Source: Octopus vulgaris
Lineage: Eukaryota
Assembly (NCBI GenBank): GCA_951406725.2
Contig: OX597828.1
Coordinates: 61,070,001 to 61,134,000 of the forward strand
Length of the DNA: 64,000 bases
Direction of reading: 5' to 3'
A program made the translations under genes and the position numbers. The notes below the pieces were generated by a model. The model was not told where the DNA came from and searched no databases. It saw only the letters and a list, made by a program, of their open reading frames with translations. Of the stretch, positions 2,143 to 58,191 are shown in pieces; the first letter of the stretch is position 1; every line of letters begins with the position of its first letter.

Positions 2143-3109
2143 CGTACTTTGTGTGACTCCAAAACGCCTTCTCAACAGCTCCTACCGACCTGTTTCTTTA
2201 TTATAGCCACAATGGTCCCTACCGACTTCCGTCTCAACCAATACGCTACTCTTTATAATAGTTCGGCTAGTCCATTTTTCCAGTTCCCCAGGGGTGTCAA
2301 TGACTCTCGCCACATCTCCCCCTTTGAGATTGACTTCCGTTGGAAGTTAATAATATTTTTATTTAATTATTTTACTTTCATTACATCTCCCTTTTTGAAA
2401 TTTTTCTCCTAGGGAAGTTTAATATCTGTTCCATTAAGGCACTGCTTCCAACCATTCTGTTTGTTTCCTCTTTCTTGTGCTGCTATGCCTTGGTTCGATT
2501 TCTTGTGGCGTCGGAATATCAAAGGTGTCATAGAGCACTTCCATGGGTATCTCTTTTCTTTTTTCCGTATATCTACTTTTTAGCTGGTTTAAATATCTTT
2601 TGTGTTCTCAATTTTCGCCTTTTATCATGTCATTTTGCCTATTCTTTTTTCTTACTACTCCGTCTTCCCAACTTTGTTCACCATTTTTATATAATTTGAA
2701 AAACATCTTGTCACCGATATTAAAATGCTTTGTCGTATTTCTAGTGTTTTCCCTATTTTTCTTCTTACTGGTAGCAGCTAGTCAAATATTGACTTTATTT
2801 TTCGAGCAAACATTAGTTCCGCAGGCGACTTGCCTGAAACAGTGTTTGGGTTTGGTGTTATCCTATAAAACCTCAAAAATTGTGTCAATGCTGCGTCATC
2901 AACTAGTTTGTTTCTTGATTTCTTTAATGCGCTTTTAAATGTATCCCTGAACCTTTCCGCTTGCCCATTTGATGTTGGGTGATACGGAGGAGTAGGAAGG
3001 AGTAAGCGACTTCATTTTAGAAATTCCTGGGTGTCCAGTGTAGAATTCTCTTGAGGTCTCTGGGTGAGACTTGGAGTTAACTTGTACAAATGTAAAGCAA
3101 AAGTCAAAC

Positions 3110-29111: not shown

Positions 29112-30176
29112 ATGTCTTTTAACAGCATTTTCCCCTTCATTACAGAAAAGATTCCAGAAAAGGTACCCAAAAATATTCATAGTACAGAAAAGCTTCGTAG
29201 ACGGAATCTAATATTTGACGAGGAGCATTTTGAAGATGTTTTCCTGCGATGTCTTATATGCAGAGAAGTATTTAATGAATCAGAAAAACTGCCCAAGACG
29301 CTACCATGCCATCACTCGTTCTGTTTGCACTGTTTCTTGCAAATGTTCCGCGTTGAAGGAGAATATCGACAGTCACTGAGCTCGGCTTTCCGAAGTATGC
29401 CACGGGCTGTTAAAATCCAATGCCCCTCATGTCGAGATAGTATAATTGCTTCAGAAGATGACTTACGTCGATTACCGAACGATCACACTGTGCTAGAGTT
29501 GATTAACTTTGTACGGGAAACCGGCATCAACGATATATCATACTGTGCCAAACACCAACTGCAGCCTCTCAACTTCTTTTGTGAGCCGTGTGCGATCCCC
29601 GTGTGTTGTGACTGTACCGTCCTGGACCACAAAAACACAAACGGGCACAACGTAATGAACATAACGGAGGCCCTCAGTAAATACACACCAATTATCAATG
29701 ACACAATTACTGAAATGGAGAAAAGTAAGCAGGAATATCTCTTCAAAAGAGCCCAAATCGAGCAGTCAATGAAACATTTGAGCCAAATGGAAACACAGGT
29801 AACTGACGAAATTAAATTGACGTTTCAAAAGCTACGTCATATGATTGACGAAAGGGAGCGCGATATTTTGTCCATGTCCGAGCAGGAAATGAATCGGAAA
29901 CGTCAAAATCTCATGGACAATTTTAAGAAGATAATAGAGCGTGAAGAATGTATGATGGATCAAATGAAAGAGCTAGAAATAGCCAAAGAAGCAAATGACA
30001 TAAGTCAGATGTTTACGTCACATCAAGCAGCGCAAAACACTCTCTCAACTCCGCTTCAACTTCCGCACATCACAAACGATAACTTTGGAGTGTCGTTTCA
30101 CTTTGAAGCCTACAAACATCGACGAGTGATGCAGGATCTCCTGAACTTTGGACATTTAATGGTATTGTCCTCTTAA
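29112..30176 (+). CDS. TRIM/RBCC E3 ubiquitin ligase (RING + B-box 2 + coiled-coil, no C-terminal domain), paralog 1; probably a large terminal exon starting at 29146
   Basis: Intact 354-aa ORF. C3HC4 RING: CLIC...PKTLPCHHSFCLHC...CPSC. B-box: CAKHQLQPLNFFCEPCAIPVCCDCTVLDH. Then an E/K/Q-rich helical region. The pyrimidine tract plus CAG (ttttccccttcattacag, AG at 29144-29145) is a phase-1 acceptor, so ATG 29112 may be intronic. Confidence 0.92.
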   Translation: MSFNSIFPFITEKIPEKVPKNIHSTEKLRRRNLIFDEEHFEDVFLRCLICREVFNESEKLPKTLPCHHSFCLHCFLQMFRVEGEYRQSLSSAFRSMPRAVKIQCPSCRDSIIASEDDLRRLPNDHTVLELINFVRETGINDISYCAKHQLQPLNFFCEPCAIPVCCDCTVLDHKNTNGHNVMNITEALSKYTPIINDTITEMEKSKQEYLFKRAQIEQSMKHLSQMETQVTDEIKLTFQKLRHMIDERERDILSMSEQEMNRKRQNLMDNFKKIIEREECMMDQMKELEIAKEANDISQMFTSHQAAQNTLSTPLQLPHITNDNFGVSFHFEAYKHRRVMQDLLNFGHLMVLSS

Positions 30177-50561: not shown

Positions 50562-50599
50562 TCTATTCTATTCTATTCTATCTATCTACATACATACTG

Positions 50600-52250
50600 T
50601 TGAGCGAGAGTCACTGACACGCCTGGTGGATTGGAAGAATGGACTAGCCGAACTCTTATAAAGAGTCGTGGTCGATAGTAGTCAGAGACGAAGGCTGGAG
50701 TTCTACTTTAGATTTTACGTCGGCTGAGGAAGAGATGGTTAAAATTGTGAAGAGACTAGACGAAGTAATGAAGGTGAAGAATTATGCAGAGGCAGTGAAA
50801 GATAAAAGCGAAGACGTGTGTCTGGAGGAGTGAAGTAGATTTAAAGAAATGCTTAGAAAGGAGAGGAACGACGTAAAAGTGCACCCCCAAGAAGTTTTAA
50901 AAGAAAAAAGAAAAAAGAAAAAAAAAAAACATTATTTACAGGACGTACTCAGCAATAAGGAAAATTGAAATCATGTCGACTGCTCAAATCGAAAAGGCAT
51001 TAAAACTAATCTGGCAAGGGATTTCTTACCTTGTCAGAGGAAGAAAGTTTGGAACGGTGGAGGTACAGTTCCGTAAGGTAGCTACTGATAGGCTGCACAC
51101 GGCAACACCCTTAAAAATGGATGAAGGGGTGCACCCATATAACTTGGGAGACGTGCTTCCAGGGTTAGGATAGAAGATACACCTCCAGAAATTGATGTAG
51201 CCTGGCTAGCAGCTGCCATACTGCTGGGCACGGAAGAGATGGTAGTAGTTCTCCAGGCCACCAGATTGCTCCATAAGAACTGGCAAGGGCAGAACCAAGA
51301 TATAATAATCCATGCAGCCCCGGAGGCCTTGAAAACATGGTCGAGACCATCACAGTCGAAGAGATGACACTCAGGATCAGAGTAGAAGGCAGGATCCCGC
51401 GATGCTATAAATGTGGTCTGAAAGGTCATATTATAGTAGATTGTCTTTCGCTACTCGTGAGGACTAAAGGGAAACCCGAGAGCAGGAAGGAAATTGCAAC
51501 TTCACCGATGGAAACCAGTAGCAGCGCCGAGGAAGAGGAGGTGAACGAGGAGAAGAACGGACGGGAAACGGCTGGAAAAAAAGAAGGAAGGGAAGCAAAA
51601 AAGCACACTTTGTAAATGATGATCCCATCCCACACCCACCTGACTCCCACTCACATCCATTCTACCCCAACCTTCCCCTACAGACACCAACCCTTCTCCA
51701 TGCTCCATCTGACACAAAGACAAGCACAAGCACAATGGAGCCCCAAACTTTCCCACCCTTATCTTGTGAGAAAAAAATATGTTATACTGTCCAACGGACA
51801 AAATGGAAAAATTTATAATGAGATAGAGTCATGGGACAGAGCGATAAAAGTGAATACGACAGAAGTTAGGGGATTGCTCGAGTACTTTCATTGTGTGGTG
51901 GCAGACCCTGAGTATATTTTGAGAGTAAAAAAATTATGAGCGGGACTTTGAGTGGTGGGTCAAGAAAATGGTCACCAGCACAATACCAGAACGGGTAAGC
52001 TATCTTGAACTTTTAAAGAAATTTAACATAGACATTCTTCGAAAAGATGAAAGTAAACAAATAGTTAACAAATAATGTTTTAAAAAGTTGTATTAACAGG
52101 TTTAATGAAGTCGCTCGGAGGTGGGGGCCGAACGGCTTCATTTCATTTATCATTTTATTTAATTCATCCTTTCCATTTGTACTCTTTTCTGTTCCCACCA
52201 TGTGATGCCCCTTCTGTGTTAGGCCCTGTGTGGCCAATAAAAGAAGGAGA
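50600..52250 (+). mobile_element. ORF1-only (Gag-like RRM/CCHC) retroelement, tandem unit 1, decayed
   Basis: Broken ORF about 50735-51939: ...STAQIEKALKLIWQGISYLVRGRKFGTVEVQF...RIPRCYKCGLKGHIIVDC. 3' hairpin 52104-52142, AATAAA 52236-52241. No RT or endonuclease. Confidence 0.8.
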
Positions 52251-54167
52251 GCGTTTTGGTAGTAGTTCGTAGTTTGGTCACGTTTCTATTCCGTCAACGT
52301 CGTAGACGCCGTCATACCAAGGTTCCGAGTTAGCGTAAGTTGCTCGTTCGTTTCATGCAATTGTAACGTTATTCTGTTGTGTGTTTTTCTACACTCTGTT
52401 TTTTTGCTGCCTTGCGGCAGTACTGTTAGCGTTTTCCCTCGGTTGAAGGGGAAAGCACTGTGAGTGCTTAGTTCGTCCCCTATGACCTCGTTCGAGGAGG
52501 ACCTGAGAAGAAGTCTGAAGAGGATTGACAAAGTAATGGAAGAAAGGAAGAAAATGAACTTTGCAGCTGCAAGTTGGTGATAAGACAGAAGAAATCTGTA
52601 TCAACAAAAAGGAAATGCAAAAATACAAAGAAATGTTGAAGTGAGAAGGACACGAAGTGAAGGTGTCACCCCCCCCCCCCCGCCCCCAGCAACAATACAA
52701 TATTTATCAAGGAAATAAGTATCACATACAGAACATAAAACCCGAAATCCAACAAGGTGGAGATAGTGGCAAAAGAACAAATGGAAAAGGCACTAAGACC
52801 CATCTGGTTGGATACTACCTTCCTTGCCAGAGGATCGACGTTTGCGACGGTGGAGGTACGGTTTACCAGCAAAGCGATAGCCAGATGTCATTCTGCGACC
52901 TCTATGAAGACAGACGAGGTAGTCATTCTACCTTTCCATCTGGGAAGTTGTGTGTCCAGGGTAATGGTGAATGGAATACCTCCGGAGGTGGACGTAAACT
53001 GGATAAAAGCGGCAATTTTAATGGGCTTCCAGGAAGGGATTACAATCCTACAAGCGACAAAGGTAACCTGCGAAGAATTGGCTAGGACAGACACTGGAAA
53101 TAATAATCCAGAGGACTTGGGAGAAATGGTCAACACCATAGCGGTGGGAGACGAGGTGAGGCTTGGGATTGTGGTGGAAGACAAGAGGCCGAGGTGCTAC
53201 AACTGTGTACAATTGGGACACATAAGGGCCAAGTGCTTTCCCACTCCCTGTAGAAGGACCAAAAGAAGCCCCACTGGAGACCGTGTCTCTAACAGTCGCA
53301 ACATCAAGAATTGAGAGGATGGAAACAAAAACTCAGGAGTACAAAAAGAAAAATCAACAGAATGGACAAAGGTGGGCAAGAAGAAGAGGAAAAGAAGAAA
53401 CTAGCAAACCAGCGAGGAAGAACCCCAACCCATTCCGGTCCCTACCCTCCCGCTCCACACCCTTCCCCCTGCAGACACCAGCCCTCTTCTTAACCCACCA
53501 GACGGGAACACAAATAATGCAAACACACAAGAGCCACAAATTTTCAATGCCCCCACCCAGTGCAAAGGTTTCAGTGAGAAAAGAAGTTGAGATGGTGAAC
53601 TCTGATATAGAGGTGGACACGAAAGATTGTGAGGGGTTAAACCCGAGTTTAAGGTGTTCCCTCCTGTTGATGGAGAATTATCACAAGTTAAAAGACAAGT
53701 ACAGGAGATACGTCTACTCCACGGGAAGAGACGTCGACCTGAACTCGTTACAGCCTAAGGTAAGATTGAATGAAATTTACCCAGGGTCAATAAAAATGAA
53801 CGGTAGTTGTAACCTTAAAGTTTTGACTCAATTTTGAACAGTGATTATCATAGTTTTAACGACATAAGTAATGTTTTGTAACTGTGTATAAAAAGGAGCA
53901 TGTAGTTGCGTATAATAGGATTCAACATAAAACGGTAATTGTTATCATAGTATTTTGACTGTGTAGATGATGTTTTAGATGGAAAAAAAGATAAAAAAGA
54001 AGCAATCTAATGTGTTGTAAAAAAAGATTCAATGAAACTGCTCGGTCGCGCGGTCGAGTAACGTTCATTTTAGTTTTCCTTTTTCAACTCCATCTTTTTC
54101 ATTCGTTCCCTCTCCCCACTTTGTCTGTCCTTGTACCGTCCCCTGTGTGGCAAATAAAGAAAAAAGC
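52251..54167 (+). mobile_element. ORF1-only (Gag-like RRM/CCHC) retroelement, tandem unit 2, decayed
   Basis: Starts at GCGTTTTGGTAG. Broken ORF from ATG 52482 to about 53837: AKEQMEKALRPIWLDTTFLARGSTFATVEVRF...RPRCYNCVQLGHIRAKC. Hairpin 54031-54069, AATAAA 54153-54158. Confidence 0.82.
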
Positions 54168-55727
54168 GCGTTTTGGTAGACCAGTGTGGTGTGTTCGCTT
54201 CCGTGTTACAGTCTGTAATTATCTGAAGTTTATTGTTGAATTGCCGTTCATTTTGTTGCAGATTTTCACTTTTGAGATTACCTTTGTTTAAAAACTGTTA
54301 ATGTCTTGCAACGCATTGTTAGCCTTCACAGGCTGGTTTTCTGTTAGCTTCTCCGTTTGGGAGTGAAGCGTTTACATTTTGTGTAAGGTGTCCTACACAA
54401 AATGGATGACGACACATTTTACGTGTTCTAGGTGTTCTGGGAGAGCGGGGATAAGGCGGACTATATAAGTGATTCGGAAGAAAGTACGGATGATTATGCG
54501 GCCACGGCACGAAGAAGATGAAACGTTGCAACATCAAGTCTGAAGCAATCAAGAATTTCCAGTCATTTCTTCAGGAGGAGAGAGACAACGTGAGGCTAAC
54601 CCCGCCTCCACCAAGGAGGTGATAGAAAAAATGAAGAGAAAACGATTGTTTATAGGACGCTATCTTTGAAGACCAGAAAAATAGAGATTGCGTCAATAGA
54701 GGGAATTGAAAAGGCATTAAAGCCTATTATGTATGAATTGGTGTACGTTAAGCGCGGAAGAAAGTTTGGAACGGTGGAGGTGCAGTTTGTGTAGAAGAGA
54801 GCGATACCAAGATGAACTCGGTGACCACCCTGCAGACAAGCGGAATAGCTCTTTTGCCGTCATATTTCGGCAAAAGAATGACGAAAATAATGATAAACGG
54901 GTTCGGCCTGGAAATCAAACCGATGTGGCTCCTGACAGCGGCCTTCGCCAACATAAAAGAAGAGGTGACACTATTACAGTTGGAAGAAAAAAGTACCCAG
55001 AACTGGTGTGGAAAGGGCCTAAGAGCAACAATCCAGGCCACACCAACAGATATTGATAGCATACCGGAGTTCATCATCCTTCTGGATGATACAAGAGTCG
55101 CTGTTCAGAGCAGAATACCAAAGTGCTTCGGGTGTGGGCAAAAGGGACACATAAGAAAAATGTATCCCCAGGGCCATCAACCTGAAACATAGGGAGAAAG
55201 CCAGACAGAGGCCAATATGCAGCAGCAAAGAATGGAAGAGGAGGAAAATCAACAAGAGGAGACGGTGGAAGGAGAGACAGTCAGGACGGAAGAAGTAACA
55301 CTGTTGACAACTTCTACAAAGTGACAGTGAATGGCAAGTGGCTGGGAGGAAGAGGAAAAACAAAATTATTTGTTTCCCCCCTCCCGCAAACAAAAAAGCC
55401 AAAAATTACAAGATTTTACAAACAAGAACACACATGAACATTTAACAGAAACAAACAAAGAGAATAAAAAAAGAAAAACAAAAGAAAACTGAGGTGACTT
55501 CACCAAGCAAAGTGAAAAAGAAAGACTGGCAATTTATGTTAGATTTTTAAATAAAATGTTCAATGATGTCGCCTGAGTCGTGGGGCACGGGTGACCATCA
55601 TTTCATCTTTTCATTTATTAATCAGAGATTTGCTCATTCGATTTTTTCTTTTTCTTTTCGGCCCCACATATAATGTCCTGTATCATCCCCTCTTTGTTGG
55701 TCCTATGTGGATGATAAAAAAATGAGA
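54168..55727 (+). mobile_element. ORF1-only (Gag-like RRM/CCHC) retroelement, tandem unit 3, decayed
   Basis: Starts at GCGTTTTGGTAG. Broken ORF: KTIVYRTLSLKTRKIEIASIEGIEKALKPIMYELVYVKRGRKFGTVEVQF...RIPKCFGCGQKGHIRKMY. Hairpin 55562-55602, then an A-rich end followed by another GCGTTTTGGTAG. Confidence 0.8.
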
Positions 55728-56570
55728 GCGTTTTGGTAGTCTTGCGAAGTACGCGTGTGAACACGTTGATTAAACATCCGCTACATGATTTATCTGTACC
55801 GACTTGTCACTGGATATAAAACATACATACATACACGCGCACGCACGCACATACATACATGCAATGTATGTATGTATGTATCTCGTAACTAGAACACGAA
55901 AGCGCTTTCCCAGTACTTAATTTTTCTAAAAGGAAAGAATTAGTATTTTGAGATGATAATTTCTAAAGTATGTATGTATGTATGTATGTATGTATGTATG
56001 TATGTATGTATGTATGTATGTATGTATGTATGTATGTATGTATGTATGTATGTATGTATGTATGTATGTATGTATGTATGTATGTATGCACGCATAATAA
56101 ATTACTGAAAAAAGTTTTTTGTGTTCTAGTTATGAAATGCATGCATGTCGTAACTAGGACACAAAAGCGTTTTTTCAGTACTTTTGCTAGAAGGAAAGAA
56201 TTGATATTACTGAGATGGTAATTTTTACAATTTAATTGTATTATAGATGATATCGGTTAAGAATTTGATAAGCAACACTTTAATTACATTCAAAACAATA
56301 TTGTTTCCTGTTAAAAGTCTCAGAAACATGTTTCATAAAACTTTGATACTCATTCTTTTCCCGATTCCTGGGAGCTTAAACTCTTGTCCTAACACATTCA
56401 AGAGAGAAATATTTTCTTTGTTCTTTGAATTTTAGCAGTATGTGTTATGTTTTTCATTTTTAAAAGAATTTATTCCTTCATCCACATTATTTACATTTGA
56501 CGGATATACCCTCCAGCATTTATTTCGAACCTGGGTTCTCATTCCTAAGGTATTTTTCGATGTTATTATC

Positions 56571-57055: not shown

Positions 57056-57148
57056 TGTATTACTCCTTTATCGTTTTAAAATTATTTTTATGAAGTTTTA
57101 CTTAACTCCAAAATGCAAATTTTCATTTTACATTTTTTTTTCTTGCAG

Positions 57149-58191
57149 ATAATACTGAAAACACCGATAAAAAGACACAACCTCAAAGCAGATTAGTCGA
57201 AAAAACTCTACGGAAACGAAAATTGGTCTTCGACGAAGAACATTTTCAAGATGCATTCCTTCGCTGTATCATCTGTCGAGATGTATATAACGATACTAAC
57301 AAAGCCCCCAAATCTTTACCATGTCAACATTGCTTCTGCCTCAACTGTTTTCTGGAAATGTTCCGCGTGGAAGGCGAGTATCGACAGTCCTTGACTTCGG
57401 CTTTCAGAGGCATGCCACGTGCAGTAAAGATTCAATGTCCGACTTGCAGGGAAAGCATTATTGCCTCTGAGGATGACCTCCGTCGACTTCCAAATCAAAA
57501 CAGTATCTTAGAGCTTCTGAAATTCGTTGAACAAACAGGCATCACTGACATTTCCTACTGCTCCAAACACCAACTACAACCGATCAACTTTTTCTGTGAG
57601 TTGTGTTCTGTAGCTGTCTGTAGTGATTGTACAGTTCTCGACCACAAGGAAATAAACGGTCATAACGTGATGAGCATAGATGAAGCCTTGAAAAAATACA
57701 CACCAGTTATTAACGACTCTATTGAAGATATGGAAATGCAAAAACAAAAATATCGTGAGAAGCGACTGCAGATTCTTCAGCGAATGGAAGATGTAAATAA
57801 AATGGAAAAGCGTGTATCAGCAGAAATTAAAGAAGCATTTCAATCTTTCCGAAATGCTATAATAGAACGTGAACGCAATATCACTTCCATGGCTGAACAA
57901 GAAGCAAGCAGAAAACGAACCCATCTCAGTGAAAATCTGCGTCAGATAACGGAAAAAGAGGAAGATATGACAGAGCGAATAAAAATTTTAAACGCAGCCA
58001 AAGTTGAAAAAGATATTCCATATATGTTCTCTATGTACAGTGCTGTGCAGGATTCATTAAATGACAACATTGAACTGCCTCATCGAATGGATGACGGATT
58101 TGATCTGTCTTTTCATTATAAAACAGAGAAGTTAGATACAGTTACTTGGGACCTGAAAGAATTTGGTTTTCTGACAATCGAATCCTCATAA
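57149..58191 (+). CDS. TRIM/RBCC E3 ubiquitin ligase, paralog 2; terminal coding exon
   Basis: The frame is open from the acceptor tttttttttcttgcag|AT (AG at 57147-57148, phase 1) to TAA 58189-58191. RING CIIC...CQHCFCLNC...CPTC, B-box CSKHQLQPINFFCELCSVAVCSDCTVLDH, coiled-coil. Colinear with paralog 1. No in-frame ATG before the RING, so an upstream exon is needed. Confidence 0.92.

Follow-up and report, generated by a model that had tools for sequence, protein, structure and literature searches.

Tx1 elements in other transposons and the octopus locus

Insertion of Tx1 long interspersed nuclear elements (LINEs) into other transposable elements has been described in crocodilians, where Tx1-Mar and SINEU-3 target Mariner-N4_AMi, and Tx1-8_Crp and Tx1-4_AMi target long terminal repeat (LTR) retrotransposons (Kojima, 2015, PMC4494074). 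The main-text portions of that report also describe tandem copies and non-autonomous passengers around a 16-bp duplication, formed by sequential insertion, with possible transcription from the flanking host. Tx1 copies in LTR elements and tandem copies around a target-site duplication are therefore already published (PMC4494074). The locus described here, a 64,000-nucleotide stretch of the Octopus vulgaris genome (contig OX597828.1, positions 61,070,001 to 61,134,000; hereafter the window), holds an array of three apparently L1/Tx1-like units that carry open reading frame 1 (ORF1) only and stand in a row inside one solo LTR. The feature common to this site and other sites of the same families is the position behind the TATA box of the LTR, not the 12-mer that is repeated in the window. 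A literature search, with subscription journals and Repbase Reports mostly outside its coverage, returned no LINE aimed at the polymerase II starts of LTRs and no ORF1-only Tx1 element.

Target-site duplication in a Gypsy-type solo LTR

The three places that an earlier sequence-only reading of the window gave for the 12-mer GCGTTTTGGTAG are confirmed: exact copies lie on the + strand at 52251-52262, 54168-54179 and 55728-55739. These 3 exact copies compare with a mean of 0.01 in shuffled sequence, and none of 100 shuffles reached 3; allowing up to 2 mismatches leaves a weak excess (7 observed, 3.35 expected). The longer junction sequence that was claimed for two of the three copies corresponds to a 17-nt extension at copies 1 and 3. 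The claim that each copy follows an AATAAA or A-rich end holds for copies 1 and 2, which are preceded by AATAAA; the hexamer before copy 3 is GATAAA. The duplicated stretch is larger than the 12-mer and measures 15-16 bp. The order of the array is LTR left half, U1, word, U2, word, U3, and a last word with the LTR right half, as follows:

50598..50688 (+), left half of a Gypsy-type solo LTR (LTR1), with a TATA box at 50657-50662; aligns with empty LTR1 copies
50689..52248 (+), unit U1, ORF1-only, 5'-truncated just inside ORF1, with a broken frame, a zinc knuckle and the shared 3' tail
52249..52263 (+), target-site duplication copy 1, containing the 12-mer at 52251-52262
52264..54165 (+), unit U2, full-length, ORF1-only, without ORF2
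52264..52279 (+), opening 16 nt of U2, identical to the beginning of the LTR6 duplicated stretch
54166..54181 (+), target-site duplication copy 2, with the 12-mer at 54168-54179 and 2 mismatches to the LTR word
54182..55725 (+), unit U3, full-length, ORF1-only, with a broken frame and a zinc knuckle in 54752-55192
54182..54193 (+), opening 12 nt of U3, identical to the beginning of the LTR3 duplicated stretch
55726..55821 (+), right half of LTR1, opening with the third target-word copy (55726-55741); aligns with empty LTR1 copies

The junction between the LTR and U1 falls at position 32/33, counted from the TATA box, and no duplication copy is left upstream of U1. The sequence behind the third 12-mer, previously taken for a short stub of an element, is the right half of the LTR whose left half precedes U1 and lies outside the coordinates of the earlier reading.

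The 2.8-Gb genome was searched, and the loci fetched from it are given L-numbers. A 14-mer from the junction was matched exactly at 37 places, and its reversed control at 8. Among the 30 of these 37 loci that were fetched, 15 are uninterrupted LTRs, 7 contain the left half only, 5 lie behind an element tail and 3 are unrelated. The uninterrupted LTR1 repeat is about 190 bp long with the word in its middle. Where a single unit fills LTR1 (L166, L267), the word stands on either side of it, as it does around the inserts in L329 and L254, and L273 has one LTR filled at its 5' LTR half and a second LTR empty. A whole-LTR query returned 30 of 30 LTR1 copies empty; this query favours empty copies and was hence not used for occupancy.

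The sequence-only reading had offered two explanations of the 12-mer, a duplicated endonuclease target site or the element's own conserved 5' terminus and promoter, serving as a self-target. The latter would fit the 12-mer standing before both full-length units in the window. However, the word occurs once in empty LTRs (those 15 of 30 loci), and U2 and U3 copies in other LTR families lack the 12-mer and bear junction words matching those hosts. Self-targeting keeps next to no likelihood and is ruled out by the empty sites and the host-matched words, which support the endonuclease-site option. We are highly confident that the 12-mer forms the central part of a target of 15-16 bp that was duplicated inside a Gypsy-type solo LTR. 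Taken alone it is an ordinary target-site duplication; what the earlier interpretation missed is the separate LTR as the target and the TATA-relative position as the common feature. No tRNA that could serve as a target was found in the 64-kb window by a tRNA scan in bacterial setting.

In L271, two LTR1 copies bracket an RNase H followed by an integrase, which identifies the host as the LTR of a Gypsy-type element. This domain order rules out Copia but not BEL. All host LTRs begin with TGTTG; LTR2, LTR4 and LTR6 end in ATAACA, and LTR1 ends in ATAAAA, not in CA. The host elements contain a purine tract and a TGGCGAC-like word, which we take to be a polypurine-type tract before the LTR and a primer site after it. 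The sequence CATAC flanks LTR1 on both outer sides (50593-50597 and 55822-55826) and lies within a CATA repeat; it may, as a weak candidate, be the LTR's own 5-bp duplication. Contigs from three DNA runs cover all three units, and none spans the whole array. Joints in these runs that skip about 5.05 kb have differing letters between the two sides and most likely stem from other, empty LTR copies; they therefore do not count in favour of an empty allele.

ORF1-only units related to autonomous LINEs

U1, U2 and U3 have diverged from each other and share a 3' tail that ends near AATAAA. Each has a broken ORF with one CCHC knuckle scoring just below the curated Pfam cut-off, and no ORF2 match was found anywhere in the three-unit array. 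The U2 ORF1 remnant (approximately 52482-53837) contains frameshifts and stops and belongs to a very large family (12,003 candidates, 150 scored). Its open relatives, with about 47% identity, are the ORF1 of elements whose ORF2 combines endonuclease, reverse transcriptase (RT) and zf-RVT domains (Pfam). Identity between U2 and U1 is 0.69, 0.71 and 0.39 at the first, second and third codon positions, and the far greater divergence at the third position indicates that ORF1 was under selection in the source copies. Colinear copies of U2 and U3 without ORF2 are present elsewhere (L255, L262). The homology to the ORF1 of autonomous LINEs, the colinear copies without ORF2 and the conservation of ORF1 together characterize the units as ORF1-only non-autonomous elements. 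HAL1 proper, of mammalian L1 descent, was rejected as an identity, as the ORF1 has a CCHC knuckle and matches LINEs of this same genome.

The nearest solved structure to the partner-type ORF2 is human L1 ORF2 (E 3.5e-71), compared with 4e-23 for R2. An ORF2 with an APE endonuclease and an L1-group RT behind a zinc-knuckle ORF1 was seen in the relatives L070 and L084, which are not intact LTR-targeting copies. No named Tx1 element is among 57 homologues, whose names carry no clade label. From the ORF layout and the target preference described below, the units and their relatives are probably Tx1-like.

LTR hosts and distance from the TATA box

Among 24 matches to the U2 3' end, only 6 stop at the LTR1 word found in the window; an LTR3 word is the end point in 3, an LTR2 word in 2 and other sequence in 9, and 4 have no tail end. 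Ends at an LTR1, LTR2 or LTR3 word (11/24) compare with a null rate of 0.0195, and 9 of these 11 lie exactly 5 nt behind the AATAAAG-type hexamer of the tail. A published rule for target preference is that more than 20% of flanks are of one kind (main-text portions of PMC4494074); both the 11/24 in LTR words and the 6/24 in LTR1 alone exceed this share.

LTR2, LTR3 and LTR6 are dispersed LTR-like repeats with empty copies (20, 20 and 25 loci examined of 40 matches each), and LTR4 was seen at filled sites only. One copy each of LTR1, LTR2, LTR3 and LTR6 was compared, and no mutual alignment was better than E 0.006. The U2 family enters all four of these repeats. The distance from the TATA box to the start of the duplication was counted with the first T of the box as 1, using TATA patterns chosen per family. 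It is 32-35 in 28 of 30 LTR1 copies, 33-34 in 8 of 15 unfilled LTR2 copies, 33 in 9 of 16 LTR3 copies, 30 in 13 of 21 LTR6 copies, and 33 in the single left half of LTR4; remaining copies have a different distance or no recognizable TATA box. The listed junctions are all in the LTR sense direction, and the script did not look for antisense insertions. The common feature of these sites is the position behind the TATA box. Transcription by RNA polymerase II starts about 30 nt behind a TATA box at an initiator-like word, and by this spacing the junctions coincide with the predicted transcription start.

Further repeats resembling the hosts were observed. The left half of an LTR1-related repeat lies at 2248-2310 (-) of the window, with a variant word (2-mismatch match at 2235-2246) and a different right part, and is probably a sister LTR family. 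In an LTR1 copy at L010/L011, a 35-bp internal duplication repeats the target word, and behind it comes a left half in inverted orientation. Additional recurrent 3' flanks resembling LTR hosts were found at L185, L210, L190, L259, L122, L338 and L334.

Probable carry-over of 5' ends and proposed growth of arrays

The first 16 nt of U2 match the start of the LTR6 duplicated stretch with 0 mismatches in 5 of 25 copies and with at most 2 in 24 of 25. Similarly, the first 12 nt of U3 match the start of the LTR3 duplicated stretch with 0 mismatches in 8 of 20 copies and at most 2 in 18 of 20. Members of the U2 and U3 families were located in LTR6 and LTR3 hosts (L146, L173, L175), including a U2 copy behind the LTR6 left half in L146. 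The start words of U2 and U3 were likely carried over from former hosts. On the simplest reading, a unit would be transcribed from the host LTR starting at the duplication, and these bases would be moved with it to the next host.

Twenty arrays were mapped. In 15 of these, a flanking LTR half could be identified, and the inner word is that of the flanking LTR's family in 15/15 (assigned by eye for L255, L261 and L335). Since arrays moved as a whole between hosts would often break this match, it argues against whole-array movement. A recognizable 5' untranslated region (UTR) is missing from the first units of 17 of 20 arrays and from 1 of 22 later units (Fisher p 9e-8, from a by-eye table). Among the 13 arrays not found solely by 5'-end queries, it is missing from 12 of 13 first units and 0 of 15 later units. 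This polarity suggests that new units enter beside the TATA side.

ORF2-bearing copies at LTR sites

In L329, the order is LTR1 left half, duplication, ORF1, two ORF2 pieces, shared tail, duplication and LTR1 right half. The ORF2 pieces are 49% and 57% identical to an intact ORF2, and the RT is deleted. ORF2-bearing copies also stand in tandem with U3 (L262) and with U1 (L330) at the LTR4 word, and the L262-type ORF2 subfamily ends at LTR4-, LTR6- and other LTR-like words.

Autonomous families of this genome were seen at other kinds of sites. At L082:4400-9901, a tandem pair of autonomous copies with a 17-18 bp duplication comes immediately after an RNase H and integrase region of Gypsy type, which may mark a further LTR target. 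A family with largely intact frames has (TC)n runs on both sides (L067-L072, with one tandem case in L067), and another occupies one fixed point in a common short repeat that ends with the same tail type (L078-L081). The ORF2 of the autonomous copy in L084 is nearly intact; the flank of this copy is duplicated over about 20 bp, with a run of T behind it. In L196, L198, L199, L207 and L209, a near-identical tail is followed by (TATC)n runs, and some of these copies contain ORF2; they likely form a microsatellite-targeting family.

Proposed mechanism and alternative explanations

We consider it probable, with appreciable doubt about the mechanism as a whole, that three ORF1-only L1/Tx1-like units were serially inserted into the LTR at its predicted transcription start by the enzymes of a full-length relative. 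Insertion would proceed by target-primed reverse transcription, with the ORF2 of the partner acting in trans. What decides the site would be its position at an RNA polymerase II core promoter and not a single fixed sequence. The LTR promoter would then drive transcription of the inserted unit, which would gain about 12-16 nt of the host LTR as a new 5' end and take them to the next host, and arrays would lengthen on the promoter side. No intact LTR-targeting copy was found, and mobilization in trans is accordingly a proposal.

Several observations weigh against this mechanism. Nine of the 24 U2 3'-end matches stop at unidentified sequence. The spacing in LTR6 is 30, compared with 33 in the other families, and all target words open with a similar, short and purine-rich (C/G)AG(T/C)-like word, which makes a loose sequence preference possible. 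A U2 copy in L131 enters an LTR1-like repeat near its left end, and the junction in L023/L266 lies about 14 nt further into an LTR1-like repeat. TATA boxes and start sites were read from sequence alone, with patterns set per family. LTR6 was picked for its likeness to the U2 start, so that their match is no blind test, and only its LTR nature and the register were predicted. No intact ORF2 of the LTR-targeting family was found, L329 being without RT and L338 broken. As to polarity, 7 of the 20 arrays were found by 5'-end queries only, the count was made by eye with an incomplete 5' UTR library built partly from the arrays themselves, and a unit scored as lacking a 5' UTR possibly belongs to a subfamily missing from the library.

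The duplication within the LTR might have arisen in the same way, with the site chosen by DNA sequence, either by several autonomous partners or by one loosely specific endonuclease. The cut would fall at an initiator-like word, whose location would in turn produce the TATA spacing. Target choice in Tx1 elements is ascribed mainly to the endonuclease in the main-text portions of PMC4494074, the target words share their (C/G)AG(T/C)-like start, and other autonomous families of this genome have fixed targets such as (TC)n or a short repeat. Against such sequence recognition, U2 alone enters LTR1, LTR2, LTR3 and LTR6, which cannot be aligned with each other, and one ORF2 subfamily (L262 type) likewise ends at LTR4-, LTR6- and other LTR-like words. 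New units also seem to join on the TATA side, even though the whole right context is retained at the downstream copy of the word. We regard sequence-based choice as unlikely, while giving it real weight. Movement of the array as one piece, whether by hitch-hiking within the LTR element or through read-through transcription of a tandem master copy, would explain why the order U2 then U3 recurs in the window and in L001/L086 and why L262 and L341 both have U3 behind an L262-type tail; intact later units behind a truncated first one also fit a read-through cDNA. However, the inner word is that of the local host in all 15 arrays, although these unit families occupy five different hosts, loci differ in unit content and in truncation points, and L273 combines a filled 5' LTR half with an empty second LTR. 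One-piece movement is very improbable on these grounds. Template switching during reverse transcription of the LTR element, at the end of the strong-stop DNA (the transcription start), predicts the observed +1 junction and a short R stretch at the 5' end of a unit. It also predicts the insert in both LTRs, whereas L273 has one filled and one empty, and the units bear LINE tails and LINE-like 5' truncations; we give template switching very little credence.

Returning to promoter-guided insertion, a broader proposal is offered tentatively, as possible but doubtful. It supposes a LINE lineage that reads the polymerase II core promoter and not a DNA word, with the nick placed about 30-33 nt past any TATA box that is suitable, here in many unrelated Gypsy LTRs. 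Its promoterless ORF1-only passengers would be transcribed by the host LTR, and their 5' ends would record former hosts. If true, this would be a polymerase II counterpart of Ty3 and TRE5 targeting, and the parasite would be able to shut off the LTR elements that it enters. For L1-group LINEs the endonuclease is usually held responsible for specificity; promoter guidance would be another kind of targeting rule, and would account for the persistence of promoterless half-elements and the build-up of arrays. The 5' remnants of units would then form a readable record of host switches. The panel of LTRs, with five targets of similar TATA spacing, makes the targeting question testable.

Neighbouring features

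Two open frames at 57106-58191 (+) and 29112-30176 (+) of the window contain RING and B-box domains and are TRIM-like. The LTR with its array lies about 1.3 kb upstream of the 57106-58191 frame, in the same direction. Elsewhere, an open frame at L086:8673-9290 resembles, by eye, what we take to be the GIY-YIG endonuclease of a Penelope-type element.

Comparison with known systems

The crocodilian Tx1 families share with the octopus elements a transposon target, a 16-bp duplication, tandem sequential insertion, non-autonomous passengers and, in some families, a preference for LTRs (PMC4494074). Unlike these families as described in the main text, the octopus passengers encode ORF1, one set of families enters at least five unalignable LTR families, and the TATA distance is common to these hosts. 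The main-text portions of PMC4494074 state no position within the LTR for the crocodilian families, and the supplement might. Tx1L of Xenopus is likewise a target-specific L1-group LINE that enters a transposon, but its target, Tx1D, is one non-autonomous DNA transposon family (PMC4494074). The mammalian HAL1 (half-L1) elements resemble the octopus units as ORF1-only non-autonomous derivatives of repeated origin (PMC5753468). They differ in being derivatives of mammalian L1, and the portions of PMC5753468 consulted do not mention site specificity. Ty3 (PMC6673722) and TRE5-A (PMC3159450) share the fixing of integration by position relative to the transcription start or promoter complex. Both differ in that they use polymerase III genes; Ty3 is an integrase-based LTR element, and TRE5-A inserts about 50 bp upstream (PMC6673722, PMC3159450). 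The octopus site, in contrast, is at a predicted polymerase II start within LTRs, where tethering to the promoter is hypothetical.

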